From IMG/VR virus record IMGVR_UViG_3300038393_002515: DNA of 64,000 nucleotides. One strand, 5' to 3'. Position 1 is the first letter of the stretch, and every line of letters starts with the position of its first letter. The notes under the pieces were generated by a model. The model saw only the letters and a list, made by a program, of their open reading frames with translations, was not told the origin of the DNA and searched no databases. Shown one piece after another: positions 22,330-50,502 of the stretch. The translations under genes and the position numbers were made by a program. The DNA comes from a virus.

Positions 22330-22643
22330 CTCGGGCTCCTCAACTCGCGTTCCTGCAAGGAGGGTTGGCCAACCCGGTGAGACCACAGTAGGCCAGCAAA
22401 GTCCCAGTTCAAAGCTTCGTCGTGGCGGCTCAGGAGAGGCTTGGGAAGCCCGATTCGGCCTTCCGGCGGCCCAGACGGCGCCGGAAGGGGTGCCGGGTGC
22501 TGCCGGGGAGTGCGTCCGGGGGTCGCGGAGGGTGTGCGAAGGCCAAAAACGCCACCCGCACTTCATTTATAACGGTCAGGTAACGGTTGTCTGCTGCTGT
22601 GCAAAGCCGCTCCGGCGCCCGAAGGGGCGAGGAGGGCACCGCC

Positions 22644-25080: not shown

Positions 25081-25137
25081 CCCTTTCCACCCTGTCCTCC
25101 ACTCCTTCACCGACGTGAAGGGCTGGAGGTGCAGGGG

Positions 25138-28100
25138 ATGACGGACATCAGCGCGGCCAGCTTCTTCCGCCAGGCGGCGGCCGATGGCGGGATCGACTTC
25201 GACCACGAAGAGACCGACACCGGCAGCTCGATCTGGCCCACCCGGATCAAGCTCAAGGCCCTGCACCCCGAGACCGGCGAGGAGATGGGCTTCCTCGACT
25301 ACCAGGTGCCCCGCCGCAAGGCCGACAAGATCACCGTCCATGAGCTGAAGACTCACGAGGACTACCGGCGCCAGGGCGTCGGCTCCGCCCTCATGGACGA
25401 GATGCAGCGCCGCCATCCCTCCACCCCCATCGATCACGGCGACCGCACCCCCGCCGGTAAGGCCTGGTGGAAGGGGTACACCGACGGCAAGCGAGTCCAG
25501 CGCGGCCGCACCATGGCCTCCCTCATCGACGCCTCCCACCCCCGCGCCGAGGTCCCGCCCGAGCAGGCAGAGGCCCTCGAACACCCCTCCTTCAGCGAGT
25601 ACCGGCGCCGCTCCCTGGAGCTGGCCAAGAACCCCACCCCCGGCACAGTCGTCTGGCGCGGCGAGACCCGCACCGGCGAGCCACACGACGCCCTGCGCTC
25701 CTCCGGCGTCGGTATGCACTGGACCGTCAACCCCGACTCCGTCCTCGTCCCGCGCCCGCAGCACGAAACCGAGCGCCGCGTCCTGTGGCAGGGACGCATC
25801 GAGAACCCCACCGAGCAGACCATCCCGCGCTCCCACCCCAGCTGGGGCGGCCGCACCGGCCACTCCATGGACCACGAGGCCGAGGTCCGCTTCCAGCCCG
25901 GCAGCAAGGTCCACATCGAGGGCGCCTACGTCTGGCACGGCCAGGGCGACCCCCAGGGCCAGCCCGTCCCCCGCAGGCCCGAGCGAACCCACCCCGGCTG
26001 GAAGTGGCACCCCGTCGGCGAGCACGCCGAGGTCCGCAACCTCGGCCACATCGACTACGGCCAGCACGAGACCCCGGCCAGCGACGCCAAGATGCCGCCC
26101 CTGTGGCACGGTGCCGACCCCCACACCGTGCTGCAGCACGAGCACGACGCGGGCAACCATCACTCCAGCCACCCCGGCGGCACCTACGACGACATCGACT
26201 GGGACGCCCCCGACGAGCACGTGGACGGCCACAGCGCCGCCGTCATGACCGACATGGCCCTCAAGGACGGCTACATCAAGCCCCACGAGCTCAGCCACGA
26301 GGACGCCTCCGAATGGCTGCGCTGGCACCCCGACCGCGCGGGTATCGAACAGCGCCACAGCGGCAAGACGGCCATGCGCCGCACCGCAGCCCTGCAGGAC
26401 GGCGACGACATCCCCTCCGGCCTCCTCAACCCCCACGGCCACCGTGTGAAGGTCAAGGTCGGCGGCCAACGCAACGTCGAGCTGGTGCCCCGCCACGAGG
26501 TCGAGCGCTACGCCAGCCAGGAGACCACCAAGGAGCACACCAAGGAGGTCGGCGAGCGCATCATCCACACCGGCGAGATGGAACCGCTCATCCTGCAGTA
26601 CCACCCCAAGAGCGGAGAGGCCTATCTGGGCGAGGGAAACCACCGCCTGCGCGCCGCCCGCACCCTGCAGATGGACCACGTCCCCGTCCGCGTCACCCGC
26701 AACAACTACGGCCTGGCCGGGCCCGGCGTGAAGGTGCCCCAGGACCATCCCGCCATCGCCGCTGGTGAGCACGTCCCCTACGACATCAAGCCCTCCGACA
26801 TCGGCCTGACCACGGTCCACAAGCCCACCATGTCTGAGGCCGACAAGCACACCGAGCTGCTCAACTACCGCCTCCTCCACGGCGGCAAGACGGCGGCCTA
26901 CACCCACGACCCACTGCCCGAGCAGGTCCGTTCCTGGAAGAACACCCGCTGGGATGTTCCCCACGAGGTCACCAGTTACATCCACCGTGGCCTGACCCTC
27001 CCCCTGACGCCCGAGGACCACGCCTACGTCCACGACGACTCCATCCCCGCTGGACGGCGCGCGGCCCACATCGTCGGCCTCGTCCACGCCCAGGGCGGCC
27101 TCGGACGGCACTGGACGGCCGACCCGGACATCGCAGGTCACTTCTCCCATTCCGGCGTCGGAGAACTGAAGCACCACCCCCACCTGCTCTCCGTCACCCT
27201 GCACGCGCACCCGCCCGCGCCCGAGCACATCGAGCACGATCCCGTCGAACTCGGCCGCATGGGAGTGCAGGGCCAGTCCGTCGAGAGCGAAGTCCCCCTC
27301 AAGGCCAGCTCTCCCGTGCGCCTGTTCGGCGTGTCCTGGCGCAACAGCCGCGACTTCGAGCAGCGCGGCCACTACCGGGCAGCCCCAGGAGCCAAGGGCA
27401 TCACCCGCAACGCATCGTCCGAGAAGCCCTGTCCCTGCTGCGGCGGCACCGGCGAGCACAGCACCGGCTTCGAGTGCTACCACTGCGACGGCGGCCTCAC
27501 AGTCCCTGTCAACAGTTCGGGTGATGCCACTTGCGACGGCACCTTGCCTGACGGCGGCCACAAGAGGATGGCGCGCGAGCTTGGTGTCTACGGGCCCCCT
27601 GACCGCTGGTATCACGCTTCACGGGAGAACCTGGATGAAGACGGATTTGAGGAGGGACACGTCAAGCCGGGCCATGACGAGGAATACGGCAAGCACTGGA
27701 ACAGCCACCTCGGCATCCACCTGACCTCGCACCACCCGACGGCGGTGGAACTCGCCGAGGGGATGTACGGCACCGTTCACCACGTCAGTCTGAACTCCAG
27801 CAACCCGCGCCACTACCCCTCCGAGCACGACCTGACCCACGACGTTCACTCGTGGGCCAGCAAGCACCCGGACTTTCGGCGCGACATGCCTGCCCCTGAC
27901 CACTCTCTGCCCGCCACTGAGGCGGCCGAGACGATGCTGCGCCACCACCCTCGCATCGCCGAACTCGCCCAGGGATTCCGTCAGCATCTGCGCAACCAGG
28001 GCCACGACGCCATCACCTATGGCAACGAGTACGAGGGGCCGCACGGTCATCTGTGCGCTATCGCTCTGAGCCCGCACGACGCACGGATAGACGGGGCTCA

Positions 28101-29016
28101 CAGCTGGGACGACGACGAGGAATGCGGGCACCTTGATGCGCTCCCCCCTCGCCACGCCTCCGTCGACACCCCCGTCCCTGACAACACCCGGCCGTACGAG
28201 CATCCCCACGACTGGCTCCCCCGCGATCACTTCTTCGCGCCGGGGGAGAAGGGCCTGGATCCGCGCCTGTTCGATGGCGACCGCATGCACCCCGAGGTCC
28301 GCCAGTACCTGCTGTCGCTGCTCAACGGCTTCTGGGCGCCCCGCTACGGCGACTCCTGGCAGTCCTGGGCCCGCGTCTACCTCGCCGGGTCCGAGGCCAG
28401 CCACTTCTACGGCAACGGCGACCTCGACATCCTGATCGGCATCAACTACGAGGCGCTCAACCAGCACTGCGACGCCTTCTGTGGCGAGCCCTGGAACGAG
28501 ATCGGTGACCGTCTCACCGCCGAGCTCAAGGCGAACCTCAACGACGACCTCCGCATGCTGCCCGGACCGGACGGCAAGGAGACCGGCCCCTGGGAGAACA
28601 CCTGGTTCGTCCTGAGGGACCCCTCTGGCACCGGCGACATCCGCAACATCAAGCCGTACGCCGCCTACGACATCACCGCCGACACCTGGGCCGTCCGCCC
28701 TGTCGAGGTGCCCGACGACTTCGGACCCGAAAAGCTGCCCGAGGCGAACTGGGATGTGGTGGACGCGGTGCGCGCCTTGGTGAAGGCTATTGGGGAACTT
28801 CCCCCCGGCACTCGCGAACGGGAAGGTGCAGCGTTGTACGATTACCTCCACTCCGACAGGTCCGCCGCCTTCGGAGATGAAGGGACCGGCCTCTACGACA
28901 CCGCCAATGTCCGCTGGAAGGCCCTCTCCGCAGCACCAGACGCACCCCTGCAGCAGCTCGTCGACTGGAAGCACGCCCACGGAACCGCCGCCACGGACCG
29001 GGAGACCGCCGCATGA
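25138..29016 (+). CDS. polyvalent multi-domain effector protein 1 (GNAT, two R-S-E ART-like, ParB-like, Zn finger, ART-PolyVal-like, nucleotidyltransferase)
   Basis: RRQGVGSAL; VVWRG..HWTVNP..EAEVRF; YIHRG..HWTADP..VESEV; GEGNHRLRAA; CPCCGGTG; WYHAS..HLTS..YGNEYEG; AGS-x10-DLD. Confidence 0.75.
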   Translation: MTDISAASFFRQAAADGGIDFDHEETDTGSSIWPTRIKLKALHPETGEEMGFLDYQVPRRKADKITVHELKTHEDYRRQGVGSALMDEMQRRHPSTPIDHGDRTPAGKAWWKGYTDGKRVQRGRTMASLIDASHPRAEVPPEQAEALEHPSFSEYRRRSLELAKNPTPGTVVWRGETRTGEPHDALRSSGVGMHWTVNPDSVLVPRPQHETERRVLWQGRIENPTEQTIPRSHPSWGGRTGHSMDHEAEVRFQPGSKVHIEGAYVWHGQGDPQGQPVPRRPERTHPGWKWHPVGEHAEVRNLGHIDYGQHETPASDAKMPPLWHGADPHTVLQHEHDAGNHHSSHPGGTYDDIDWDAPDEHVDGHSAAVMTDMALKDGYIKPHELSHEDASEWLRWHPDRAGIEQRHSGKTAMRRTAALQDGDDIPSGLLNPHGHRVKVKVGGQRNVELVPRHEVERYASQETTKEHTKEVGERIIHTGEMEPLILQYHPKSGEAYLGEGNHRLRAARTLQMDHVPVRVTRNNYGLAGPGVKVPQDHPAIAAGEHVPYDIKPSDIGLTTVHKPTMSEADKHTELLNYRLLHGGKTAAYTHDPLPEQVRSWKNTRWDVPHEVTSYIHRGLTLPLTPEDHAYVHDDSIPAGRRAAHIVGLVHAQGGLGRHWTADPDIAGHFSHSGVGELKHHPHLLSVTLHAHPPAPEHIEHDPVELGRMGVQGQSVESEVPLKASSPVRLFGVSWRNSRDFEQRGHYRAAPGAKGITRNASSEKPCPCCGGTGEHSTGFECYHCDGGLTVPVNSSGDATCDGTLPDGGHKRMARELGVYGPPDRWYHASRENLDEDGFEEGHVKPGHDEEYGKHWNSHLGIHLTSHHPTAVELAEGMYGTVHHVSLNSSNPRHYPSEHDLTHDVHSWASKHPDFRRDMPAPDHSLPATEAAETMLRHHPRIAELAQGFRQHLRNQGHDAITYGNEYEGPHGHLCAIALSPHDARIDGAHSWDDDEECGHLDALPPRHASVDTPVPDNTRPYEHPHDWLPRDHFFAPGEKGLDPRLFDGDRMHPEVRQYLLSLLNGFWAPRYGDSWQSWARVYLAGSEASHFYGNGDLDILIGINYEALNQHCDAFCGEPWNEIGDRLTAELKANLNDDLRMLPGPDGKETGPWENTWFVLRDPSGTGDIRNIKPYAAYDITADTWAVRPVEVPDDFGPEKLPEANWDVVDAVRALVKAIGELPPGTREREGAALYDYLHSDRSAAFGDEGTGLYDTANVRWKALSAAPDAPLQQLVDWKHAHGTAATDRETAA

Positions 29017-31760
29017 CCGAGCACAGCGCCACCGAGTTCTTCCGCACGGCCGCAGGCATCCCCGAGGGCGCGCCCAAGGGCCTCGCGACCAGCGAGCAGA
29101 CCTGGGGCCACTACCGGGCCGAGCACGCCGCCTTCAAGGACACGGACCAGCGGCAGTACCCGAGCACCAAGGCGGCCCAGCAGCACGCCGACGAGATCTG
29201 CGACAAGGAGGGCCTGCCGCGCGTCAAGGTGCGCGCGCACCGCTCACCGAACCCGAACTACTCGCGCTACGACTCGCAGCTCTACGTGAAGCCCGAGCGC
29301 CAGTACATGCCGGTGGTCTCCCTCGGGAAGTCCTCCTACAACGAGGGCGTGCTGATCCACGAGCTGGCGCACCACAAGCACTTCACGACGACGTTCCCCG
29401 ACGGCAAGGTGGACCCCGAGGGGCGGGAGAAGTACTTCGCCGACGACGAGGGCGGCCACGGCGCAGGCTTTCAGCAGCACTACCACCAGATGATCTCCGA
29501 CCACCACAGCGGCGGCAGCGACTTCGCCGACTCCGTACGAAGCCACGCCGCAGAGGGCGGCTTCTGGAAGGCGTCCGCACTGCAGGCCGAGCCCACGGGG
29601 GAGGAGGGGCCACTGAACGAGTCACTCGTCTGCCTCTCACCCACCGCCAGCCGCGAGACGAGCGAACCACACACCGCGACCGCGTTCTTCCGTGGCGCGT
29701 ACGATGCCCCCGAAGGAGGAGGCCATGGATCTGGACGAGCAGACCGACGAGATGATGTCTCCCGAGGTCGAGGCGGAGATCCTGCACCGGCAGGAGACCG
29801 CCGACGACCGCAGCCCGGTCAGCATGAACGAGCTGAAGCGGCGCCTCGCCGAGTCCACGCTTCAGCCGAGGTAGAACGCCACCCCGAGCTGCAGGGCGAC
29901 CTGGACCGCCTCGGCGGTGGCGCCCGGCACGTGCAGGACACCATCACCGCTCTGCAGCACGGGCACTCCAGCGTGAGCACCTACCCGCTCTCACACCCGC
30001 TGGAGGGCTGGCACGCCGCCATCACCTCCGGCGGCCACCAGGTCGTCCACCGCGTCGACCCCGACACCAAGACCCTTCACGTCGGCTACGCCGGACACAA
30101 CATCGCTGATGCCGAGGAACGCCTGGGTGCCAGTGGGGGAGAGGGCAGCTCCCTGCCGGTGGAGTTCCACAAGGGCGCGGAGAAGGACTTCGACAGCCTC
30201 CACCCCGAGGTCCAGGAGAAGGCTCTCAACACCATCGACCGCCTCGCGCGCGGCGAGCAGCACAAGTTCGACCACGCCCTGACAGGTAAGCACTGGGAGA
30301 CCGGCGGCTGGCGATCGGCCCGCGCCGACTTCCTGCACCGCGTCACCCACCGCTTCGAGGACAACGAGGGCAACCCCGTCTCGGCGCCCGAGCGCGCGGC
30401 CCGGCTGTTCATCGGCCACATCGGCCCCCACAACTACGAGGCCGCCCAGAAGCGCCTGTCCAGCCTGACGGCGTGGTTCCGGACAGCCAGCCTGCCGCAG
30501 GAGTGGTACCACGGCTCCGGTGCCGCCTTCGACCGCTTCGACATGAGCAAGAACAAGACGGTCCAGGACGATGACGACGCCAAGCACTGGAACAGCCACC
30601 TCGGCGCCCACTTCACCAGCGACCACCGCGTCGCCCAGGAGTTCGCGCAGCGCCAGGGCGGCGGCCACGTCTACCACGCCCGGCTCGACCTGCAGAACCC
30701 CAAGCACTACGAGTCCGAGCACGACCTGGACCGGGAAGCTGCTCACTGGGCCCATGCCAACGGGCACGACCTTGGGCCGACGATGAGCAACCCGGCCTAC
30801 CGGGAGCAGACCGAGCCGGACGAGTGGCAGTTCCTCATCAAGTACAACGACGAGGGTCACCCCAGGCCGGAGGCCCGCGAGATAGCCCACGGCTTCCGCA
30901 AGCACCTGCAGGCCCAGGGGCACGACGGCATTACCTACGGCAATGAGTTCGAGGGCGCCCACAACGGCTTCCACGCTGGAGAGCGGCACCTGTCCGCCAT
31001 CGCCTTCCACCCCGACCAGATCCAGATCACCCAGCGGCACGGCGGCGCCGAGGACCACGAGCCCCGCACTGCTGCTACCAGAGGCGTCGACAACGAGGGT
31101 CACCCCGTTGAACTCGACGACATCGACGGCTGGCACCATGCCGACGGATCCGTCTCTCATGACGATGGCACCACCATCTCTGACCACCCGGTCCGCGTGA
31201 CCGAGGCCGAAGAGCGGCTCATGCAGCGGCAGGCGGCCGCCGTGACGTACGACGACGGCATCATGGTGGCTTTCGTGCCGCCGCCCGAGATAGCCGCCCA
31301 ACTCGCCCAGGACGGCGGGCAGACGGCCGATGATCTGCACATCACCCTGGCCTACCTGGGCCATGTGGCTGACTACACTCCCGAGCAGCTTTCACTGCTG
31401 CCACAGCTGGTTTCAGCCTGGGCAATGCGCCAAAAGCCGGTTACGATCCGCATCGGAGGCGTTGGGACGTTCAACAACGCCTACAAGAACCAGCACGTCC
31501 TGTGGGCGCACCCCGACATCCCGGGTGGAGTTCAGATGCACGTCAGCCTGGTCCGCGAGCTGGAGCGCTACAAGTTCCGGCTCCCCAGCGAGCACGGCTG
31601 GACACCCCACATGACGCTGCAGTACGTCAACCAGCACCACCGCTTCATGCCGCAGCTGCCACAGATCGGCTGGGAAGCGACCGAGGTGGTCACCTTCATC
31701 GGAACGGCCCGCCACGCCGCTCGCCTCGGCTCCCGTCCCAGCACAACCACCACGCTCTAG
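29013..31760 (+). CDS. polyvalent multi-domain effector protein 2 (HExxH peptidase, two RelE/ParE-like, ART-PolyVal-like, 2H phosphoesterase)
   Basis: 915 codons are open in one frame. Motifs: HELAH; two RelE-like folds; WYHGS..HFTS..YGNEFEG; HITL and HMTL. Codons 29712-29876 look off-frame, so the gene structure is uncertain. Confidence 0.6.
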   Translation: MTEHSATEFFRTAAGIPEGAPKGLATSEQTWGHYRAEHAAFKDTDQRQYPSTKAAQQHADEICDKEGLPRVKVRAHRSPNPNYSRYDSQLYVKPERQYMPVVSLGKSSYNEGVLIHELAHHKHFTTTFPDGKVDPEGREKYFADDEGGHGAGFQQHYHQMISDHHSGGSDFADSVRSHAAEGGFWKASALQAEPTGEEGPLNESLVCLSPTASRETSEPHTATAFFRGAYDAPEGGGHGSGRADRRDDVSRGRGGDPAPAGDRRRPQPGQHERAEAAPRRVHASAEVERHPELQGDLDRLGGGARHVQDTITALQHGHSSVSTYPLSHPLEGWHAAITSGGHQVVHRVDPDTKTLHVGYAGHNIADAEERLGASGGEGSSLPVEFHKGAEKDFDSLHPEVQEKALNTIDRLARGEQHKFDHALTGKHWETGGWRSARADFLHRVTHRFEDNEGNPVSAPERAARLFIGHIGPHNYEAAQKRLSSLTAWFRTASLPQEWYHGSGAAFDRFDMSKNKTVQDDDDAKHWNSHLGAHFTSDHRVAQEFAQRQGGGHVYHARLDLQNPKHYESEHDLDREAAHWAHANGHDLGPTMSNPAYREQTEPDEWQFLIKYNDEGHPRPEAREIAHGFRKHLQAQGHDGITYGNEFEGAHNGFHAGERHLSAIAFHPDQIQITQRHGGAEDHEPRTAATRGVDNEGHPVELDDIDGWHHADGSVSHDDGTTISDHPVRVTEAEERLMQRQAAAVTYDDGIMVAFVPPPEIAAQLAQDGGQTADDLHITLAYLGHVADYTPEQLSLLPQLVSAWAMRQKPVTIRIGGVGTFNNAYKNQHVLWAHPDIPGGVQMHVSLVRELERYKFRLPSEHGWTPHMTLQYVNQHHRFMPQLPQIGWEATEVVTFIGTARHAARLGSRPSTTTTL
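29725..29874 (+). CDS. embedded +1-frame ORF, antitoxin-like (49 aa)
   Basis: GAAGGAGGAGG SD precedes the ATG. Only 3 of 49 codons end in A/T, against 36 of 55 in the host frame. The SPEVEAEILHRQE...SMNELKRRL tail resembles addiction-module antitoxin components. Confidence 0.5.
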   Translation: MDLDEQTDEMMSPEVEAEILHRQETADDRSPVSMNELKRRLAESTLQPR

Positions 31761-35152: not shown

Positions 35153-35977
35153 TCAGGCCCGCTCCAGTTCGCCGAACGGGCTGGGGGAGAGGGCGACCAT
35201 GTCGGGAGTGATGCGGGTGGGCAGCTCGGGGGCATCGGGGTCAGGGCAGGCGAGGGCCACGACCTGGCGCAGGATGGTGCGCGGCGTGTGCTGGGGGTCG
35301 AGCCGGTTGCCCCGGTAGCTGACCAGGAGCGGGCCCCGGTCCTCGAACGACTGCGGCGGCCGGTGGGTGCGCACCGGCAGGTAGGCGCGGACGGCGGCGC
35401 GGATCTCGTCGGGGAAGGCGTAGCGGCGGGTGCCGCCGCCCTTCTGCCAGACGTCGCCGATCATCCGGCCGGACTGCTCGAAGCGGACGCCGGGCAGCTC
35501 GAACTCGGTGATCTGCCGAGAGCGCAGCCCGGCCAGCTGCAGGTAGGCGAAGAGCCGGTCGCGCTCGGCCGTCTCGCCCTCAAGCTGGTCGGCGCCCCAG
35601 CGCAGCAGCTCCATCTGGCCGGGGGTGAGCAGCTCGGTCCTGGGTGCGTTCCAGGCGCCGGTGCCCATCTTCGGGTCGACCGGCGTGGTCGTGGTGTGCC
35701 CGAAGTGGTGGGCGTAGGTGTAGAAGGCGCCGACGGCGGAGACGCGCAGGGCCCGGGTGCGGATGCTGCCGCCCTGCATGTCGAGCCAGGTGACGAAGTG
35801 GGAGGGGCGGGCGCGCCAGGCGCCGATCTGGACAGTGTCCTCGATGAAGTCGAGCCAGGCACTCACGTGCTCGGCGTACCGCTCGGGGCTGGTGCCCTGC
35901 AGCAGGCGTCCTTGCTTGCCCCGTCGGTCGGGGTTGTTCTCGTCGAGCCAGGTGGCCAGCACGGTGCGCGCGTCCAT
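35153..35977 (-). CDS. tyrosine-recombinase-like protein with degenerate C-terminal catalytic motifs
   Basis: SAM-like N-domain and an AGLRSRQI Arg box. I see no clear HxxR or terminal Tyr box by eye. Confidence 0.5.
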   Translation of the reverse strand: MDARTVLATWLDENNPDRRGKQGRLLQGTSPERYAEHVSAWLDFIEDTVQIGAWRARPSHFVTWLDMQGGSIRTRALRVSAVGAFYTYAHHFGHTTTTPVDPKMGTGAWNAPRTELLTPGQMELLRWGADQLEGETAERDRLFAYLQLAGLRSRQITEFELPGVRFEQSGRMIGDVWQKGGGTRRYAFPDEIRAAVRAYLPVRTHRPPQSFEDRGPLLVSYRGNRLDPQHTPRTILRQVVALACPDPDAPELPTRITPDMVALSPSPFGELERA

Positions 35978-36012
35978 GGCGGACCATCCTGGCACCTGGG
36001 GCTGACAAACGC

Positions 36013-36043
36013 CGAAGGCCCCGTTGTGTACGCGGGGCCTTCG
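36013..36043. terminator. hairpin
   Basis: 11-bp stem CGAAGGCCCCG/CGGGGCCTTCG. Confidence 0.45.
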
Positions 36044-36145
36044 GGTGCTGCGGGCGTTCCCTGTGGAGCAGAGTCGGCCGTCGGCGTTTGGATCCTCGCC
36101 CTGGGCGCTGGTGAGCTTGTTTCGATCCCTCTCGGGCCGTATGAC

Positions 36146-36214
36146 CTCCGCTAGCGCGGAGCCAAGCTCTGAGTCACCCCCGCTGACGCGGGGACCAACT
36201 CCGCTTGCGCGGAG
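36146..36214. repeat. three tandem 16-bp palindromes CYCCGC-N4-GCGGRG
   Basis: Located at 36146-36161, 36178-36193 and 36199-36214. Confidence 0.6.
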
Positions 36215-36314
36215 CGACCGGCGAGGTCCCAGGGCCCTTGCCGGTGAGGAAGACATTACCTGTTCGCGGGCCGGGGTGTGGGCGGTTCGTCGAGATTCAC
36301 CCCAGCGGAGCGCG

Positions 36315-37259: not shown

Positions 37260-37411
37260 CGGTCCCGCCGGAGCGCGTCCGGGGGGAGGACAATGCGCAG
37301 CGTCGGCGGGACCTTGGCAGGCGTGTACCCGGGTCCCGCTTCTTCATGCGCACGCGAAAGGCCCCGCCCATGCGCCACGGGGGTAGCGCACGAGCGGGGC
37401 CGTCTGAGGGG

Positions 37412-38416
37412 TCAGGCTCCGGCGACCTTCCGGCGCCGGGTCGCGGGCCCGGAGGAGGCGCGGTGGCCGCCGTCCGGGGTGAAGACCCGCGTGGCCATGG
37501 CGGCCTGGGTGAGGTGGTCGGCGATGGCGCGGGAGATGACCATGCCGGTGGTGACCTCCACGAACCCGAACTGGCCCGAGGGGTTGGCCTCCAGGAACCA
37601 CCAGGTGCCATTGTGGTCGACCGCGAAGTCCAGGGCTGCGTACGCCAGGTCCAGCCTGCGCATCAGCGCCGTTACCTTCTTGGCCATCGGCAGCGTTATC
37701 GGCGCCGCCTCGTAGTGCTGCTCGTCCTCCGGCACGGCCCGCCAGTCCAGGCCGTCGGCGGTGATCTTGCAGGGGAACATGCGGTCCCCGATCACCGTCA
37801 GCCGGATGTCGTGCGTCTTGGCGATCGGCTGCTGGAAGTAGTGCACCCCGCGCTGGATGTTCTCCCAGCTGTCCCGGATCTCCTGGGTGGAGACCAGGCG
37901 GGCCTGCACGAAGCGGTCCGGGTGGCCGACGAGCGTCTTGCACACCACCTGGCCGCCGCACTCCTCGGCGAACACGGCGGCCTTGTCGGGCTCGTTGGTG
38001 AACAGCGCGTCCGGGGTACGGAAGCCGAGGTCGCGTGCCGTCTTGAGCTGCACCGGCCCCGGCCGGGCGGCCAGGGACCGGTGCGGGTGGTTCACCCACA
38101 GCACATCGCTCAGGCCGTACAGGAAGGACTCCAGGATGGTCCTGGACTCCGTCTGCGCCCATTCGGCCGGGTGCTCCGGATGCCACCAGAAGACCGACAC
38201 GATCGACGCCGACAGGGTGGTGCGGTGGCCGTCGTCGACGGTGAACCGCAGCGGCTCGCCGTCGGCCATGCCGGTCATGCGCAGCACGCCGGGCCGGGCC
38301 AGGTCGTTGGGGTCGATCCGGTGGACGTCCATGTCGCGGTCGGCGAGGTGCCGCACGACGAGATCGGCACCTACGTCATTGGGTGCGGCGACCATGAGCA
38401 CTGTGGGAGGGAGCAT
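37412..38416 (-). CDS. ATP-grasp ribosomal-peptide maturase (graspetide ligase)
   Basis: About 330 aa with MvdC/MvdD-like architecture (LKTARDLGF, VVCKTL, WWFLEANPSGQF). It starts 2 nt after the precursor gene's stop. Confidence 0.8.
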   Translation of the reverse strand: MLPPTVLMVAAPNDVGADLVVRHLADRDMDVHRIDPNDLARPGVLRMTGMADGEPLRFTVDDGHRTTLSASIVSVFWWHPEHPAEWAQTESRTILESFLYGLSDVLWVNHPHRSLAARPGPVQLKTARDLGFRTPDALFTNEPDKAAVFAEECGGQVVCKTLVGHPDRFVQARLVSTQEIRDSWENIQRGVHYFQQPIAKTHDIRLTVIGDRMFPCKITADGLDWRAVPEDEQHYEAAPITLPMAKKVTALMRRLDLAYAALDFAVDHNGTWWFLEANPSGQFGFVEVTTGMVISRAIADHLTQAAMATRVFTPDGGHRASSGPATRRRKVAGA

Positions 38417-38418
38417 GA

Positions 38419-38697
38419 TCAGTCGTCGTCCTTCGTGGTGCCGGAGGAGTTGACGGTGTAGGAGGGGCCGAAGAGCATCGACTTGGCCGGGGGCGGGGCG
38501 ACCCAGTCGTCGTCCTTCTTCGTGCCGGAGGAGTTGGTGGTGATGGTCTCGTTGGCCAGCTCGTGCCGGGCGACGTCGATGACGGGGGTGCCGCAGGAGG
38601 CCACGTTGAGCTGGCGGGCCCGGTCGTAGGTGAAGGCCGGAGTGCGGTCGGTGACCAGCGGGGGGCGCTCTGCGAGGAGGGCGAACGGAGAGGTCAT
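38419..38697 (-). CDS. graspetide (omega-ester peptide) precursor with two core repeats
   Basis: Leader SPFALLAE resembles the microviridin PFFARFL box. The cores are TTNSSGTKKDDD and TVNSSGTTKDDD. Confidence 0.7.
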   Translation of the reverse strand: MTSPFALLAERPPLVTDRTPAFTYDRARQLNVASCGTPVIDVARHELANETITTNSSGTKKDDDWVAPPPAKSMLFGPSYTVNSSGTTKDDD

Positions 38698-38785
38698 GGT
38701 GGGATCCTTCCGAGCGTTGAGGGGAGCCTAGCGCGAGGCGGGGCTCAACTCGCCCCTGTGCGGGGCGGGTTCACTCATGAAGTTA

Positions 38786-38835
38786 TGACATATTCTCAGA
38801 TCGGAAAAAGTCCTCGGCGCGACTTGGCATATGCC
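38786..38835. repeat. cassette-flanking inverted repeat, left
   Basis: TGACATATTCTCA...GACTTGGCATATGCC. Confidence 0.6.
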
Positions 38836-38889
38836 ACTCCTGTCGGGCCCGCTCCGGCCAGCTCCAAGGGCTGGAGAGAGGAGCCCGCC

Positions 38890-40414: not shown

Positions 40415-40440
40415 TAACCGCATCAACGGACATGCGGTTA
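40415..40440. repeat. 9-8-9 palindrome at the 3' end of int (candidate recombination core)
   Basis: TAACCGCAT-CAACGGAC-ATGCGGTTA, followed by an extra TGCGGTT half-site. Confidence 0.45.
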
Positions 40441-41403
40441 TGCGGTTTTTCCTTGATCGGGCGTCGCCAGGAACTTCGCCAGGTCGTACACCGGCGACTC
40501 GTCCAGGTCACCCCGGGACAGGTCGTAGCGGGTCGTGGTGCGTGGGTCGGCGTGGCCGAGGAAGCGCTGGACCTTCCGCAGCGGCACCTTGGCGTCCAGC
40601 ATCAGCGTGGCGCAGGTGTGTCGCAGGCCATGCGGGGAGATCCGTGTGACCCGGGCGGCCCGGCAGGAGCGGGAGACGATGACGGCGATGCGCCGGTTGG
40701 TCAGCCGGGCGCCGTCGGCGCACAGGATCAGCGGGTCCTCGGGCTGGCGGTGGGGCCGCATCGCGAGGTGGGCGTCGAGCGCCTTCGCCGCGTCCGGCGG
40801 CACCACGAGCGTCTGCTTCTTCGTCCGCTTGCGGGTGACCTGCAGCGTGCGGTGGCCGCGCTCGCCGTCGTAGTGCTGCACGTTGGCGCTCTCCAGCTCG
40901 GCCGAGCGCAGCCCCATGCCCAGCAGCACCTCGCAGACGGCCGAGTCCACCGCCCCGTACTCCCGGGCCATCTTGCGGAAGGCGCGGGCTTGCGCCCTGT
41001 CCAGGCCGAGCGTCTGCGACTCCTCGGAGACCTCGACGCGGTGCTTGCGCCGGTACGGCGAGCGCCGGATCTCGTACGCCTGCTCGTACTCGTCCAGGCC
41101 GAACTCGTACCAGCCGCTCATGGCGCTGAGCGCCTGGTTCACCGAGGACGGGGCGAACACCTCCTGCAGGTCGGCCGACCACTGCGCGGAGTGTTCACGG
41201 CGGGCCGCCAGCGGGGAGACCCCGTTGTCGAGCGTCCAGTCGAACCACGCCTCGATGCACCGCTTGTAGGCAGCGCGAGTGTGGGCGTTGCGGTGCTCCA
41301 GCAGCCACTGCCGCTCGATCTCCCCGCACACCCGGCGGATGTACGCCTCGTTCTCGTCCAGCTGCAGCGCGCCCGCCGGGGCGACGACCAGGTCAGTGGT
41401 CAT
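40438..41403 (-). CDS. int: tyrosine recombinase / integrase
   Basis: GLRSAEL (Arg), HGLRHTCAT (HxxR) and LGHADPRTTTRY (His/Tyr). ATG 41403 overlaps the upstream stop. Confidence 0.85.
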   Translation of the reverse strand: MTTDLVVAPAGALQLDENEAYIRRVCGEIERQWLLEHRNAHTRAAYKRCIEAWFDWTLDNGVSPLAARREHSAQWSADLQEVFAPSSVNQALSAMSGWYEFGLDEYEQAYEIRRSPYRRKHRVEVSEESQTLGLDRAQARAFRKMAREYGAVDSAVCEVLLGMGLRSAELESANVQHYDGERGHRTLQVTRKRTKKQTLVVPPDAAKALDAHLAMRPHRQPEDPLILCADGARLTNRRIAVIVSRSCRAARVTRISPHGLRHTCATLMLDAKVPLRKVQRFLGHADPRTTTRYDLSRGDLDESPVYDLAKFLATPDQGKTA

Positions 41404-41795
41404 GACGTGATCTTGCCGTACCTCTCCTCGATCTCGGCCTTGCACGGCCTGCAGGTGCTGTGCCCGTACGTCCAGGCCGTCTTGTCGAACTGGTCGCGGT
41501 CGAGCCAGCGGAAGCACGAGCCGCACAGCTCCTGGCCCTCCGTGGGCGGGCCCGAGTGCAGGCGCCAGCCGGTCTTGCGCTCCTTGCCCTGCTTGGTGGT
41601 GCCGGACTCGTGCAGGTTGCGGCGGGCGATCCAGCGGAAGCCGCCCAGGCGCTGGCCGCCGGACGGGTCCCAGACCTTGATCCTGTCGCCGTCCACGCTC
41701 CACACGACGAACGGCTTGTGGCGCGTCTCCCCCCAGAGGTAGTCCGTCTTGCACGGCACGTACGTCTGTTCCGGCAGCACCTCGAAGTCACTCAC
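41400..41795 (-). CDS. hypothetical protein
   Basis: GTG 41795 (VSDFEVLPE...) with overlaps at both ends; CGSC and CRPC pairs. Confidence 0.55.
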   Translation of the reverse strand: MSDFEVLPEQTYVPCKTDYLWGETRHKPFVVWSVDGDRIKVWDPSGGQRLGGFRWIARRNLHESGTTKQGKERKTGWRLHSGPPTEGQELCGSCFRWLDRDQFDKTAWTYGHSTCRPCKAEIEERYGKITS

Positions 41796-43979: not shown

Positions 43980-44192
43980 TCAGACGGTCAGGCCGTCGAC
44001 GAACGCCGCCCAGGCCTCGGGCCGGAAGGCGAGAATGCGGGCGTCGGCGGAGTCCTGCTTGCTGTCGTAGACGCCGACGGCGGCCACGGCACCCGTGGTG
44101 TCCTGCTGGATTCCCTGGAAAACGCAGTTCTCGCCCGAACCGCTCTCGCTCGACTTGTGCCAGCCGGTGAACTGCTCCTTCGTGTACTGCAT
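43980..44192 (-). CDS. DUF397 (BldB-like) protein
   Basis: WHKSSESGSGENCVFQG signature. Confidence 0.8.
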   Translation of the reverse strand: MQYTKEQFTGWHKSSESGSGENCVFQGIQQDTTGAVAAVGVYDSKQDSADARILAFRPEAWAAFVDGLTV

Positions 44193-44223: not shown

Positions 44224-45090
44224 TCACAAGCGGCTGAGGAAGTTGTGGAGGTACCGGCGGGAATCCGGTACCGACAGGGCTTGGCTCTGCAGCCTGTCAT
44301 AACGGGCACGGTACATGGAAACCTGCTCTTCGTCCTCGAAGAACGTTCCGTCTCCGTACCCCTCACGAAACGTCAACTCCACGTCAACTACGGTCAGTAG
44401 AGTGAAGGATCCAGACATCCCGGCGTGCAGGCCCGAGGCCAGAGGGAGGATCTGGATGCTGGCCCTCGTCTCTCCCAGGTTGAGCAGGTGTTGGATCTGT
44501 TCGCGATGCGCCTCGACGTCCCCCTCGGCAGGGGGCGTCAGGACCGCAGCCTCTCCTATGATCGCCCACACCTGCGGCGGGTGTTCGGTCTGCAGCAACT
44601 TCTTGCGCGTCTCACGCAGCGCCAAGTGCCCCTCGATCACCCCCGGATCCACCAGCGGCTGGCCCGGCTGGGCCAGATTGCCCCTGCGGATGGCCTCCTC
44701 GGAGGTTCGCGCCGTCTGCAGGAGGCCGGGGATGACGTACGGCTCCCAGGTACGCAGGGCGGTCGCCATGCTCTCCGCGTCGGCATAGTCGGTGTAGGTG
44801 GGCCCGAGACGGCTGGCCACACCAAGCGGAGCGCGCTCCTTGGCCCGGGTCGCCCACTCCTCCATGCGCTCGATCTGCCGGGAGTCGCTGATCCCGTAGA
44901 TACGGCAGTAGGCGCCGATCATGCCCTTCTTGACGGCCGTGTGACCGGACTCGTTCCGGTAGATCGTCGGCACAGACAGGCCGATCTTGTCGGCGACCTC
45001 CTTGGCTGTAAGTCCGGCCTCGTCACGGGCCAGCTTGAGCATGCGCCCGAGGATGCGTCTGCGGATGGTAGGCAGCGATCCGTACGCCAC
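44224..45090 (-). CDS. XRE-family HTH regulator, WhiJ/Scr1-like (DUF5753-type C-domain)
   Basis: LKLARDEAGLTAKEVADKIGLSVPTIYRNESG. GTG 45090 after GAGGGGAGGA. Confidence 0.8.
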   Translation of the reverse strand: MAYGSLPTIRRRILGRMLKLARDEAGLTAKEVADKIGLSVPTIYRNESGHTAVKKGMIGAYCRIYGISDSRQIERMEEWATRAKERAPLGVASRLGPTYTDYADAESMATALRTWEPYVIPGLLQTARTSEEAIRRGNLAQPGQPLVDPGVIEGHLALRETRKKLLQTEHPPQVWAIIGEAAVLTPPAEGDVEAHREQIQHLLNLGETRASIQILPLASGLHAGMSGSFTLLTVVDVELTFREGYGDGTFFEDEEQVSMYRARYDRLQSQALSVPDSRRYLHNFLSRL

Positions 45091-45294
45091 GAGCCTGTCC
45101 TCCCCTCGTCGGTCAGTGCGGCAAGTCTGCACCCCCGTCAGGCTCTTAGACCAGTCACCCGCATGTGCACATTCTCATTCTGAGGACTTGCAGAACGAGA
45201 GATCTTCCGCCACGGTGGGTGACAACCCGCTTGCGCCAGGTACCGCATCGGTGTGAGCAGGCCTCACCTGCCCATCCTGCAACGGGAGTTACAC

Positions 45295-45774
45295 ATGCAC
45301 TCCCAGACTCGCCAGGGTCCGCCAACCCTGGGTCTGCTTGGGAACATCCGCTACACCCGCGCCTATTCGAAGGAACTGGCGAGCGTGCCTCTCGCTCGTG
45401 CGCGGTTCCACGAGGCCGCCGACGACAGCAAGCTCGACCACGAGATCGCCGAGAAGGCCGTGCTGTGCCTGTCCGAGCTGGCCGGTAACGCCGTCAGACA
45501 CGCCCACGACCCGCGCAAGATCCGCCGGTTCCTCGTCGAGTCCACGATCCGCCCGATACGCCGCCGCTTCACCCTGGAGGTCAGCGTTTGGGACATCGAC
45601 CTCTGCCACATCCCCCCTCTGCCGGACCCCGCCACGGCCGCCGCGCGGCTCTTCTCCATGGACGAGGACGCCATGAGCGGGCGAGGGCTGCTGTTCGCCG
45701 CCTCCCTGTCCGACGGCATCGGCATCGACCGTGGCCCCCACGGCAAACGAGTCTGGTGCCGCTGGCACCTCTGA
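45295..45774 (+). CDS. HATPase-type anti-sigma-factor-like protein (AbaA-like)
   Basis: ELAGNAVRHA N-box and SGRGLLFAASLSD G-box. Confidence 0.7.
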   Translation: MHSQTRQGPPTLGLLGNIRYTRAYSKELASVPLARARFHEAADDSKLDHEIAEKAVLCLSELAGNAVRHAHDPRKIRRFLVESTIRPIRRRFTLEVSVWDIDLCHIPPLPDPATAAARLFSMDEDAMSGRGLLFAASLSDGIGIDRGPHGKRVWCRWHL

Positions 45775-47629: not shown

Positions 47630-48116
47630 CCCCGCCCGCCTGAAGATCACCGTCACCCGCGACGACGTACTGAAGGGCCTGGAGAAGCACGCCAGCAACC
47701 TCAGCACCATCGCCGACATCGCGCGCGCCGTCGTCGCCGGTGTCCACGGGGTCGAAGGCGTCTGGGACGGCAAGACCGCCCTGTCTTACGTCCATCAGGC
47801 CGACCTCAAGCGGCTGCTGGCCGACATGGTCGCCGACGGCTCCCTGATCCTGCGTCCGGGCCCCGAGTGGGTCGAGCGTGGCGCGCCCACGTGGAACATC
47901 CGCAAGGGCGGCCACTACTACGCCTTGCCGCAGGAGGCCCGCCAGTGGCAGGAGGCGGCCGACCAGAGGCGCGCCCAGGCCCGCCAGGAGACGGCCGAGC
48001 GGCTCGCCCGGAACAAGCTGGTCGAGCTGCACCCGCGCCAGTACGCGGACCTGGTGAACGAGTACCTCGCCGCGTACGACCGCGTCGGCGCCCAGGAGAC
48101 GGAGCCCCTCGCGTGA
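47619..48116 (+). CDS. hypothetical protein
   Basis: 11-nt overlap with the upstream gene; GC3-rich. Confidence 0.5.
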   Translation: MGTDPARLKITVTRDDVLKGLEKHASNLSTIADIARAVVAGVHGVEGVWDGKTALSYVHQADLKRLLADMVADGSLILRPGPEWVERGAPTWNIRKGGHYYALPQEARQWQEAADQRRAQARQETAERLARNKLVELHPRQYADLVNEYLAAYDRVGAQETEPLA

Positions 48117-48658
48117 GCAGCCTGCAGACGCCGGAGCCGCTTCAGCGGCTGACCCGCAACGCCTACCACCTCAACGTGCACTCCCTGGTCGACTGGGCCG
48201 AGCGCCATTACGTCGACTTCGACCCGCCGTACCAGCGTCAGGCCGTGTGGGGCGTGCGACGTCGTCAGCGACTGATCATGTCCCTCCTTCAGCAGCTCGC
48301 CGTCGGCGGCATCACGGTCAACAAGCGCGACGACCGGCTGACCTGGCCGAACGAGGCCGCGTTTGCCGTCATCGACGGCAAGCAGCGTTGGCAGACGCTG
48401 CTGATGTTCATGCGCGACGAGCTGGCCGTGCCGCGCTCCTGGTGGGACTCCAGCGAGCTGACCGACGCCTACGAGGAGACCCCCGACGGCCCGCACGTGC
48501 GGTACTCCCAGCTCACCCAGCGCGGACAATTCCGGTTCGATGCCCTCGCCATCCCGTTCGATGAGATGTACCTGAAGAGCGTGGACGCCGAACACAAGGT
48601 GTTCCGCCTGCTCAACACGGGCGGCCTGGCCCAGGGCGAGGAGGACGACGACAGGTGA
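48113..48658 (+). CDS. DUF262 (ParB-like/GmrSD N-terminal type) domain protein
   Basis: DFDPPYQRQAVW and VIDGKQRWQTL motifs. No HNH/DUF1524 half is present. Confidence 0.6.
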   Translation: MSSLQTPEPLQRLTRNAYHLNVHSLVDWAERHYVDFDPPYQRQAVWGVRRRQRLIMSLLQQLAVGGITVNKRDDRLTWPNEAAFAVIDGKQRWQTLLMFMRDELAVPRSWWDSSELTDAYEETPDGPHVRYSQLTQRGQFRFDALAIPFDEMYLKSVDAEHKVFRLLNTGGLAQGEEDDDR

Positions 48659-48736
48659 CGGCCGGGCATGTCAGTGCCCTCCCCTACGGTGGCGCCGAGC
48701 GTGATGCCCGGCGCCACATGCGTTTTCGGCACCGGG

Positions 48737-48767
48737 TTGACACATGCATCTATGGATGCGTTAGGGT
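48737..48767 (+). promoter_or_regulatory. promoter-operator block, copy 4
   Basis: TTGACA-N19-TAGGGT; ATGCATCTATGGATGCGT at 48744-48761. Confidence 0.65.
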
Positions 48768-48798
48768 GGAGTCAAGCCCGCCAAGGAAGGTGCACACC

Positions 48799-50502
48799 AT
48801 GACCCAGTCGCCCACCCTCGCCGAGACCCTTGCGATCCGGCCCGAGCAGCTCACCGGCCTCACGCCGGTCGAGGTCGACCGCTACAACGCCGTGCTGTGG
48901 ACCGAGTACGCCCGCCTCGCCGCCGCGATCGACAAGGCCGCCGACGGCATCCACAGCGCGCTGCTGCAGCGGAAGAAGAGCGAGCGGCACGGGCGCGGCT
49001 ACACCCAGGTGTGGCCGACGACGTTCGCCGAGGCCCTGCGCACGGCGCAGGAGCACCTGACCACCGGCTGGGAGCCGGACCAGGCCACCCGGGTGCAGCA
49101 CGGCCTGTACCGCGAGGGCGCCTACGCCGCGAGCCTGCGCAAGGCGCTGGACTTCTACAACGCCTTGGGCGCCGCGCGGCAGCGGCTCAGCGACGGCCCC
49201 GGCGCCGTCCTCGACGGTGAGTTCACCCGGCGGGGCGGCTGGTCGCGCATGTACCTGTGCACCTCCGACGGCGGCCACATCCACAGCGGCCGCCAGTGCC
49301 CGAGCATCGGCCCGCGCACCGAGCTGGCGTGGCTGCCGGACGTCTCCGGCATGGACTGGCGCGAGGCGTACAAGGCCCTGCCGCAGAACCTCTCCGCCGG
49401 GAGCCCGGCGATCATGTGCACCAAGTGCTACCCGGACGCCCCGGTCGACTGGACCGTCAAGCAGGCCGACCCGACCGTCTGTCCCGGCTCCGGCAAGTCC
49501 GCGTGGGAGCACATGACGGAGCACCAGCGCGGCCTGTACATGAAGTACGGCAAGTGCCCGTACTGCCCCGACGACGCCGACCTCGTGAGCGTGACCAGCG
49601 GGTGGAAGTTCCGCAAGCACAAGACGGCCGCCCAGGCGGCGCCGGTCGCCGAGGAGCAGCCCGCCCCGCCCGCCCCGAAGGCGGCCGCCCCCAAGCTGAC
49701 GCCGACCCAGCAGAGCGCCCTCGACCTCATGCGCTCCCGCCACACCGGCATGATCCACAGCGGCGAGGGCTTCGCCATCACCACGGTGGACGCCCTCGCC
49801 CGGCACGGCCTGTGCACGGTGGAGAAGTCCAGGCGCGCCGACGGCGTCCTCCGCACCACCGCGTACACCTACTTCGAGGCCACCCTGACCGACAAGGGCT
49901 GGGAGGGCCACGAGCGCCCCGCCGAGCCCGGCCCCGCCTACGGCGAGCCCACCCCGAACGACGAGCTCGGCAAGGGCGACCGGGTGATCAACATCCACAC
50001 CGGCTCCGAGGGAGTGTGGCAGGGCCCCAGCCAGCTGGGCGGCTGGAGCGTCCGGGAGGACATCGGCGCGACGTTCAACATCCATGCGGGCGGCGGCGAT
50101 CACTGGCGCCTCTTGGAGCGGGCCCCTGAGGCGCCTGCCGAGCCCGTCGTTGAGCCGCAGGAGGCCGCCAGCGCCCCGGCCGAGGACGACGTGCCCCTCG
50201 ACCAGGACAAGCCCGTGACGCACGCCTACGGGCCCGCCGGGGTCCGCTACGAGCCCGGCATGCGGGTGACCCGGCGCGGCCGTGACGGCATGTGGGAGCA
50301 CGGGGAGGTGACCGAGGTCTTTGAGGCCGCCCACACCCGGGAGCCGCGCCTGCGCTTCACGGTGGACGCCTACCAGGCCGCCCCGCCCCGGCGTAAGCAG
50401 AAGTGGATGGACAACAAGCCCGGCAAGCGCCGGTCGACCGAGCCCCGCTCGGCAATCGCCCTCGTCGCCGACAAGGACTTGAGCCCCGAAATCATCGCCT
50501 GA
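48799..50502 (+). CDS. hypothetical protein (567 aa ORFan)
   Basis: AAGGAAGG SD after block 4. Confidence 0.6.
   Translation: MTQSPTLAETLAIRPEQLTGLTPVEVDRYNAVLWTEYARLAAAIDKAADGIHSALLQRKKSERHGRGYTQVWPTTFAEALRTAQEHLTTGWEPDQATRVQHGLYREGAYAASLRKALDFYNALGAARQRLSDGPGAVLDGEFTRRGGWSRMYLCTSDGGHIHSGRQCPSIGPRTELAWLPDVSGMDWREAYKALPQNLSAGSPAIMCTKCYPDAPVDWTVKQADPTVCPGSGKSAWEHMTEHQRGLYMKYGKCPYCPDDADLVSVTSGWKFRKHKTAAQAAPVAEEQPAPPAPKAAAPKLTPTQQSALDLMRSRHTGMIHSGEGFAITTVDALARHGLCTVEKSRRADGVLRTTAYTYFEATLTDKGWEGHERPAEPGPAYGEPTPNDELGKGDRVINIHTGSEGVWQGPSQLGGWSVREDIGATFNIHAGGGDHWRLLERAPEAPAEPVVEPQEAASAPAEDDVPLDQDKPVTHAYGPAGVRYEPGMRVTRRGRDGMWEHGEVTEVFEAAHTREPRLRFTVDAYQAAPPRRKQKWMDNKPGKRRSTEPRSAIALVADKDLSPEIIA

Follow-up and report, generated by a model that had tools for sequence, protein, structure and literature searches.

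We analysed a stretch of viral DNA of 64,000 nt (IMG/VR record IMGVR_UViG_3300038393_002515), referred to as the window throughout, with a focus on two adjacent genes for a graspetide, a peptide made by ribosomal synthesis and then modified post-translationally (RiPP), of the omega-ester type. Our data support the view that positions 37403 to 38844 form a self-contained, horizontally exchangeable two-gene graspetide cassette, an accessory cargo that sits in a phage-plasmid's variable region. We put the probability of this reading at roughly 80%. A preliminary description of this DNA, made from the letters alone, had proposed a precursor gene followed after 2 nt by a ligase gene, and both open reading frames (ORFs) were confirmed. 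The borders of the cassette follow from comparison with pRLB1-9.1, a circular replicon of Streptomyces sp. RLB1-9. The features of the cassette are:

37403..38844, exchangeable cassette of about 1.44 kb, delimited by blastn against pRLB1-9.1, with homologous flanks on both sides
38698..38844 (-), cassette-specific 5' region, an AT-richer stretch with the -10-like hexamer TAGGCT and, before the precursor ATG, the Shine-Dalgarno sequence GGAAGGA
38419..38697 (-), graspetide precursor gene, 92 aa, ATG start, supported by the ORF, its coding signature, TIGR04186 and 31 homologous clusters
38674..38688 (-), leader box 1, PFALL, with A6, L7 and L8 invariant and F5 nearly so among 29 precursors
38602..38634 (-), leader box 2, FTYDRARQLNV, the best-conserved leader segment, with Q29 and N31 invariant and D25 nearly so
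38506..38547 (-), core 1, TITTNSSGTKKDDD, 14 residues, followed by W65
38422..38463 (-), core 2, SYTVNSSGTTKDDD, 14 residues, C-terminal and immediately 5' of the stop codon
37412..38416 (-), ATP-grasp graspetide macrocyclase, PruB/SAV_5884-like, 334 aa, ATG start

The G+C content at third codon positions is 0.96 for the precursor gene and 0.95 for the ligase gene (69% overall G+C in the window), and by this high-GC coding signature both ORFs look like real genes. Only positions 38417-38418 lie between the stop codon of the precursor gene and the ATG of the ligase gene. The region 38698-38844 may contain a putative promoter of the cassette's own.

The Ligase Groups with Graspetide Macrocyclases

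Conservation of the N-terminal MPLPPTVL in the clade leads us to prefer the long start of the ligase, giving 334 aa, to the 327 aa gene call of the database. The best NCBIfam model was TIGR04187 ("ATP-grasp ribosomal peptide maturase, SAV_5884 subfamily") with 254.2 bits (E = 1.6e-75). Weaker scores were obtained for MvdC (121 bits; curated cutoff 425), MvdD (94 bits; curated cutoff 475), RimK (TIGR00768, 52 bits) and LysX (35 bits). The protein is thus an ATP-grasp RiPP ligase, as had been proposed, but it is of the SAV_5884/PruB type and not a MvdC/MvdD enzyme proper. All six sequence matches in the PDB (9BOU, 5IG8, 7M4S, 5IG9, 7DRM, 7MGV) are graspetide ligases; the enzymes behind them are PruB (9BOU), MdnB, AMdnB, MdnC, PsnB and CdnC.

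An AlphaFold2 (AF2) model of the ligase reached a predicted template modelling score (pTM) of 0.75, and for most of the ATP-grasp core the predicted local distance difference test (pLDDT) exceeded 85. In a Foldseek search with this model PruB of S. coelicolor (9BOU) was the best match (E = 1e-26, 33% identity), and ranks 1 to 32 were occupied by the graspetide ligases PruB, AMdnB, MdnC, CdnC, MdnB and PsnB. RimK, LysX and ArgX appeared from rank 33 on with E-values of about 1e-15, about 11 orders of magnitude weaker.

According to work on PsnB, two signatures are conserved across graspetide ligases, a D(F/W)R loop and, in the active site, an Arg that is R213 in PsnB (10.1101/2021.03.09.434688). 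The window ligase has R205 (in HDIRLTVIG) at the position of PsnB R213 and the loop D224-W225-R226, together with the ATP-grasp Lys K160 and the Mg/ATP ligands D263, E276 and N278. All of these residues are invariant in 23 clade members, and in an alignment with MdnB, MdnC, AMdnB and CdnC the signatures match the DWR and ELR motifs of these enzymes. The ligase groups with RiPP macrocyclases, away from metabolic ATP-grasp ligases. A grouping with primary-metabolism ligases, which the preliminary description had named as an argument against its own view, was seen neither in the best families and PDB matches nor in the top 32 Foldseek matches, all of which are graspetide macrocyclases.

Leader and Duplicated Core Are Conserved among Homologous Precursors

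The precursor reads MTSPFALLAERPPLVTDRTPAFTYDRARQLNVASCGTPVIDVARHELANE-TITTNSSGTKKDDD-WVAPPPAKSMLFGP-SYTVNSSGTTKDDD, i.e., a leader of about 50 aa, core 1, a linker of 14 aa that starts with the W following core 1, and the C-terminal core 2. TIGR04186 ("putative ATP-grasp-modified RiPP", NCBIfam) matched with 26.5 bits and just passed its cutoff of 25, and Pfam Strep_pep stayed slightly below its own; the family match of the precursor spans residues 3-62, which comprise the leader and the first core only. Used as a single-sequence query the precursor found two proteins only, while a profile search recovered more (31 clusters). ORFs located 5' of ligases in related loci, the profile search and the Tu6071 locus together yielded 32 distinct precursors, which have in common the PFALL box, a YDRxRQLNV box and an LFGP junction before the C-terminal core. 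The leader box that had been quoted as SPFALLAE is real in its PFALL part, and agrees with the canonical graspetide leader motif P-h-h-x-h; a motif of the type Phhx(1,2)h has been described (PMC8939145). The second leader box is also present in distant precursors, and its prunipeptin-type equivalent is YDSGLQLNV.

Both of the near-identical cores noted in the preliminary description are present and share 10 of 14 aa and 35 of 45 nt. Two cores with the consensus [TS]-x-T-H-N-x-x-G-x-K-K-D-D-D recur in 27 of the 32 distinct precursors, so that this layout is not due to chance. Within the two-core precursors T3 and N5 do not vary, nor does G8 of core 1, and 23/27 copies of core 2 retain G8 as well. 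The Asp triplet is kept in 26/27 copies of core 1 and 25/27 of core 2. The residue following core 1 is F or W in all of them. The donor and acceptor positions T1, T3, K10/11 and D12-14 are conserved in both cores, and the variable positions match better within one precursor (mean 10.3 of 14) than between precursors (9.6; permutation p = 0.014). The LFGP junction is found ahead of core 2 only.

Single-core relatives (Tu6071, P0117-P0119 and L081, where P stands for precursors and L for loci) align as the two-core form minus the core-1 block. Since single-core relatives (L007, L081, P0117-P0119) keep core 2 only, these alignments suggest that core 2 is probably ancestral and that core 1 arose by internal duplication. 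More distant ligases, at 45-50% identity, are accompanied by single-core precursors of the form FGPTMT...(K/R)KDDD, in which the loops are longer and unrelated. A fixed frame with varying loops is expected if cross-links form at T1/T3 and at the Asp triplet, with the loop facing the target.

The Two Genes Stay Together in a Poorly Annotated Streptomyces Clade

The close clade of the ligase is from Streptomyces and comprises about 28 ligase clusters that are 58-73% identical to the window ligase; it is monophyletic and sits on a long branch in a neighbor-joining tree. Beyond this clade, identity steps down to 50%, 45%, 41% and then about 35% for the canonical Streptomyces "ATP-grasp ribosomal peptide maturase". 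Fourteen close-clade loci were inspected, each with at least 10 kb of flank. Precursor and ligase genes are adjacent in 13 of these, and in the remaining one (L082), which is riddled with insertion sequences, the precursor was lost. All 14 loci lie in phages, phage-plasmids or other mobile-element-like regions.

The close-clade ligases are labelled "hypothetical protein" in every NCBI and JGI record, and the two-core precursors likewise; the sole named precursor form of the clade is a 64 aa single-core form, annotated as ATP-grasp-modified RiPP. Both genes are called hypothetical because their scores lie at or below the curated cutoffs.

The Cassette Was Probably Exchanged as a Unit

The flanks of the cassette are 81-84% identical to pRLB1-9.1 at the nucleotide level. 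In blastn this homology ends at window position 38844, 147 nt 5' of the precursor ATG, and resumes at 37403, just past the ligase stop codon. In the same slot pRLB1-9.1 also harbours a graspetide pair, to which the NCBI annotation (PGAP) gave the labels tgmA and "MvdC/MvdD family ATP grasp protein". The two ligases share 37% identity and fall into different major branches of the tree. Given flanks that are this similar, divergence of the cassette from pRLB1-9.1 in place was rejected.

The clade of the window ligase also occurs in unrelated backbones without common flanking genes. Clade members were found in IMG/VR genomes of 76-96 kb, including an S. africanus contig, and on the "plasmid" of Streptomyces sp. 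GDS52, where the pair lies beside holin, amidase, Dit and tape-measure genes. In addition, integrated prophage-like blocks with the pair start with a serine recombinase and an XRE-DUF5753/DUF397 pair. The distribution in other prophages, which the preliminary description had suggested to examine, thus extends to phages of about 90 kb and to integrated prophages. Neither the 8.8-kb neighbourhood nor the locus of the ~93-kb S. africanus element had a megablast match among 50,697 phage genomes on deposit, and with this empty result a ZL12-like nature of the ~90-kb carriers is unsupported.

Some related loci show additional features. The GDS52 "plasmid" (JBQQCR010000003.1, 126,646 bp; L005/L006) contains the pair with its phage neighbourhood twice, 87.8 kb apart. 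The record probably represents a phage of about 88 kb, assembled as a concatemer or with terminal redundancy, and not a 127-kb plasmid. On the circular replicon of about 88 kb of NBC_01240 (88.5 kb; L079 3163-4212) a PhlD-like type III polyketide synthase gene is located 1.6 kb 5' of tgmA, which recalls the type III polyketide synthase reported on the Streptomyces plasmid-phage ZL12; the same replicon carries a "phiSA1p31-related" phage gene. Cassettes of the HNDDD type have a third conserved small ORF (117-130 aa) right 3' of the ligase gene, which the window cassette lacks. Examples are FNV58_RS00895 of pRLB1-9.1 (L078 9981-10334) and OG466_RS40735 of NBC_01240 (L079 6945-7337). Its product is Cys-rich (MSWP..CN.C.D.EM.WAYPV ... 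HHA.Q.W.AC.RC) and may be a partner protein.

A distant ligase relative (27% identity) is encoded by the Leptospira phage vB_LalZ_80412-LE1 (KF114876.1; L088 ~2170-3460, corresponding to ~58.8-60.1 kb of the record); among deposited phage genomes, only this one and one other show similarity to the ligase. It is annotated as "RimK-like ATP-grasp". An unannotated ORF of about 107 aa continues in the same frame into an annotated 37 aa ORF 5' of the ligase gene. This ORF has a YDRxRQLNV-like leader box, PELTYDRKSGLNF, and three repeats that resemble cores, TKTFTQRESDDEE, TKTDTIREVDDD and TKTEENKEQDE. Nearby is a gene for a ParB-like protein. The layout of the locus suggests that a multi-core graspetide pair has gone unrecognised on this plasmid-prophage of a spirochaete.

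The Carrier Is Probably a Streptomyces Phage-Plasmid

The window encodes DnaB, primase, the alpha subunit of DNA polymerase III, a UvsX/RecA-like recombinase, RuvC, a large terminase subunit and a polyvalent ART/2H-phosphoesterase protein. The large terminase (22587-24839) shares about 30% identity, across more than 90% of its length, with its counterparts in the actinophage myoviruses Gordonia RedWattleHog, Rhodococcus E3 and Mycobacterium Myrna (phages of 135-165 kb). Positions 46-61243 of the window are collinear with 33.7-95.7 kb of pRLB1-9.1, with 41 kb aligned at 70-90% nucleotide identity.

The replicon pRLB1-9.1 (NZ_CP041653.1; 154,158 bp) is also represented as an IMG/VR viral genome, and the parts of the literature accessible to us describe it as a plasmid only. 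It encodes an HK97-fold major capsid protein, baseplate J, ParA, ParB, NlpC/P60, the DNA polymerase III alpha subunit and DnaB. As a circular molecule with capsid, baseplate and ParAB genes it appears to be a phage-plasmid of about 154 kb. By its collinearity the element of the window is probably likewise a Streptomyces phage-plasmid, of about 150 kb; circularity and ParAB are known from pRLB1-9.1, in regions whose counterparts lie outside the window. The phage-borne nature proposed in the preliminary description is therefore upheld by terminase and synteny, but the carrier is probably not a generic prophage.

The exact sequence of the pair is present in 11 soil or rhizosphere metagenome runs. 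An independent 58-kb JGI contig has the same arrangement, nine similar contigs exist besides, and one contig with the protein is 310 kb long.

Proposed Modification and Alternative Explanations

The following course of events is proposed for the cassette. The two genes would be co-transcribed and, because the gap is only 2 nt, probably translationally coupled. The ligase would dock on the leader via the PFALL and YDRxRQLNV boxes and, with ATP, phosphorylate the Asp side-chain carboxylates in the C-terminal triplet of each core to acyl-phosphates, with R205 and the DWR loop acting as in PsnB. Thr/Ser hydroxyls at core positions 1 and 3 would capture the acyl-phosphates to form omega-esters, and Lys at core position 10 or 11 may capture one of them to form an isopeptide. 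Each core of 14 residues would be converted to a small bi- or tricyclic hairpin, so that one leader would give rise to a "two-headed" product with 4-6 dehydrations in total, and the variable loop between the fixed T-x-T and K-K-D-D-D would determine target specificity. The module includes neither a peptidase nor an exporter, and for this reason the leader would presumably be removed, and the product released, by host functions or lysis.

Several observations weigh against this reading. The ligase score of 254.2 bits is below the curated TIGR04187 cutoff of 350, and Pfam Strep_pep (PF14404) matched the precursor with 22.4 bits, below its cutoff of 25. Position and number of the putative cross-links are deduced from conservation only. 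The AF2 model of the precursor is of low confidence (pLDDT 67, pTM 0.30), although, in favour of the proposal, each core forms in it a beta-hairpin that turns at core positions 6-7; the FTYD...LNVA leader box forms a third beta-hairpin, with the highest local pLDDT (81-83). Core 1 is decayed in P0113 and P0116, where the Asp triplet or more was lost, and thus may be dispensable. A domain search of the neighbours (33.3-46.5 kb) revealed no transporter, protease or acetyltransferase adjoining the pair, as the preliminary description had stated, so that neither the cassette nor these neighbours contain a peptidase or exporter. From rosaritide it is known that some TIGR04187-type ligases need a partner protein, and none is evident in the cassette of the window. 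A scan for sigma-70 and terminator consensus sequences found nothing decisive directly 5' of the precursor gene, and a search of sequencing runs detected the pair in no RNA-seq run.

The decay of core 1 bears on the possibility that only the C-terminal core is modified, with core 1 serving as spacer, decoy or leader extension and a single-core, prunipeptin-like peptide as the product. That the single-core relatives L007, L081 and P0117-P0119 retain the C-terminal copy, that P0113 and P0116 lost the Asp triplet or more of core 1, and that the LFGP junction precedes core 2 only would all fit this explanation. We nevertheless regard it as unlikely: core 1 keeps T3, N5 and G8 in every two-core precursor and the Asp triplet in all but one, always followed by an aromatic residue, which indicates purifying selection on exactly the donor and acceptor positions. 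Moreover, the variable positions co-vary between the cores of one precursor, and multi-core modification under one leader is well documented, repeated cores being usual in graspetides (PMC9576775; PMC8939145). It is very improbable that the ligase acts like RimK or LysX and adds amino acids to a protein C-terminus, such as the DDD tail or a ribosomal protein. The PHROG match to "ribosomal protein S6 glutaminyl transferase" (E = 7.8e-11), the weak match to RimK and the acidic tail of the precursor would agree with such an activity, but the RiPP-maturase model is far ahead, the PDB and the leading fold matches are all graspetide macrocyclases, the D(F/W)R loop specific to graspetide ligases is invariant, as is the active-site Arg, and the leader is homologous to tgmA/Strep_pep leaders. 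Hardly any weight is left for the view that the pair is host chromosomal DNA beside a prophage, or a product of metagenome mis-assembly. The window does stem from soil and rhizosphere metagenomes, and the 310-kb contig exceeds pRLB1-9.1 in length; opposed to this are the collinearity with a circular replicon on both sides of the pair, the independent 58-kb and nine similar contigs, the recurrence in 11 sequencing runs, and relatives inside IMG/VR viral genomes of about 90 kb.

What the product does is the least certain part. By analogy, tight-binding protease inhibition may benefit the phage-plasmid or the carrier cell, since graspetides commonly are protease inhibitors; this assignment is tentative and, taken alone, rather doubtful. 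A functional cassette with another role, e.g., an interbacterial toxin, a Streptomyces developmental signal, or a counter-defence or superinfection factor, is a possibility that we consider seriously, if with limited confidence. It is in line with the moron-typical position beside recombinases and at prophage ends, with the recurrent association with XRE-DUF5753/DUF397 developmental-type regulator pairs (PMC13097080), and with the absence of an exporter, which fits intracellular action. In addition, rosaritide did not inhibit growth, and the bioactivity of many graspetide groups is not known. On the other hand, neither gene matched a defence model in a PADLOC scan, and the characterised graspetides with known activity are mostly protease inhibitors.

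Comparison to Known Systems

The closest known system is the prunipeptin type (PruA/PruB; TIGR04186/TIGR04187, i.e., tgmA/tgmB; Strep_pep), whose family of biosynthetic gene clusters is found almost exclusively in Streptomyces. Like the window pair it consists of a Streptomyces precursor gene and an ATP-grasp ligase gene, the leaders are homologous (PFAL-type box and YDxxxQLNV box), and in both the core is C-terminal, with N-terminal Thr donors and a terminal Asp cluster. Prunipeptin itself is reportedly bicyclic, with one ester and one isopeptide bond formed by the single ligase of a two-gene cluster; the modification proposed here would parallel this topology. Window pair and prunipeptin type presumably belong to graspetide "group 11". 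The window ligase differs in being about 33-37% identical to the prunipeptin-type ligases, under the family cutoff and in a separate long-branch clade. The core [TS]xTHNxxGxKKDDD is duplicated in the window, whereas canonical precursors of the prunipeptin type (at least 30 loci) have a single core, TTTSTAGSKTHFDD. The tgmA cassette of pRLB1-9.1, with relatives on the plasmids of Streptomyces sp. NBC_01240 and NBC_01238, shares slot, orientation and precursor-then-ligase order with the window cassette, but its precursor is of the canonical type with one core, TSTTTSTAGSATHNDDD, instead of two.

Repeated cores under one leader and with one ligase are found in plesiocin (group 2), thuringinin (group 3), chryseoviridin and Gra-4 (two TxxKxxDD repeats). 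The repeats of such multi-core graspetides form hairpin-like (bi)cycles, and many products are protease inhibitors. They differ from the window pair in ligase clade, core motif and taxa, and are chromosomal, often with PCAT-type or other transporters. The microviridins (MdnA-E/MvdA-F, group 1) share with the window pair the ATP-grasp fold, the P-h-h-x-h leader helix motif and the chemistry proposed here, i.e., side-chain cross-links from Thr/Ser/Lys to Asp/Glu. In contrast to the window pair they have two ligases (for ester and amide bonds), a TxKxPSDx(D/E)(D/E) core, a GNAT acetyltransferase and an ABC transporter. With one ligase, scores below the MvdC and MvdD cutoffs, and neither this core motif nor acetyltransferase and transporter, membership in the microviridins was rejected.

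Small RiPP or bacteriocin clusters as cargo of temperate phages were presented in [quoted passage not shown], the main text of which does not mention ATP-grasp or microviridin-type clusters. In the searchable literature, none of the papers that mention both graspetides and phages had a title or abstract that pointed to a phage-encoded graspetide. The pair would specify a known kind of natural product; its novelty is in its ecology, as mobile phage cargo, and not in its chemistry.

Neighbouring Genes

Outside the cassette the following genes of the window were noted:

25129-29016 (+), 1295 aa protein with a weak GNAT match only
29013-31760 (+), 915 aa polyvalent protein with ART-PolyVal ADP-ribosyltransferase and 2H/LigT phosphoesterase domains
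35153-36256 (-), tyrosine recombinase without Pfam match, 76% identical to a "tyrosine-type recombinase/integrase" of pRLB1-9.1
40438-41754 (-), tyrosine recombinase, 39% identical to its pRLB1-9.1 counterpart
43980-44192 (-), DUF397 protein
44224-45132 (-), XRE/HTH_31-DUF5753 protein
45253-45774 (+), HATPase_c_2 protein
48113-48658 (+), 181 aa ORF with a GmrSD_N/DUF262-type domain, matching PADLOC NsnA (E = 1.6e-15) and PD-T4-2_A
48655-50502, 615 aa ORF that follows it and matches only PHROGs of unknown function

The two recombinase genes bracket the variable region that holds the cassette, and the low identity of the second one suggests that it was replaced or strongly diverged. The DUF397, XRE-DUF5753 and HATPase_c_2 genes form a WhiJ/BldB/anti-sigma-like trio about 5.5 kb from the pair, and are possible regulators of the cassette. 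An XRE-DUF5753/DUF397 pair adjoins the graspetide pair in three integrated prophage loci (L080, L081, L086) and lies near it in L007; co-occurrence with DUF397/DUF5753 was described for graspetides of groups 11 and 13 (Carter et al. 2026). Distant versions of the polyvalent protein (26-28% identity) adjoin the graspetide pair in phages of about 93 kb. The GmrSD_N/DUF262-type ORF, which shares the accessory region with the cassette, may serve in defence against phages.

Implications

Our analysis points to a plug-in module of 1.4 kb that is swapped among phage backbones, and to a clade with a duplicated core that resides on mobile-like DNA at every locus inspected. As a two-gene system it is tractable for studying how one leader serves two cores. 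That the clade is largely unannotated points to a blind spot of annotation pipelines.

Cassettes for graspetides are now seen in three unrelated Streptomyces phage backbones and, as it appears, in an unannotated Leptospira plasmid-prophage. One might speculate that temperate phages and phage-plasmids recurrently carry them as an exchangeable payload and that the two-headed peptide is a protease inhibitor deployed by the phage, although we consider this, as a whole, rather unlikely. If true, the inhibitor could act inside the cell, where it would block a host protease by which defence is triggered or phage proteins are broken down; its target could instead be a protease cascade of Streptomyces development. 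In either case it would not be a bacterial "antibiotic" but would establish a new class of factors with which phages counter defence or manipulate the host. The question arises why temperate Streptomyces phages repeatedly carry a probable protease inhibitor. Should the product act in phage-host conflict or host development, graspetide-class RiPPs would join the accessory toolkit of phages.

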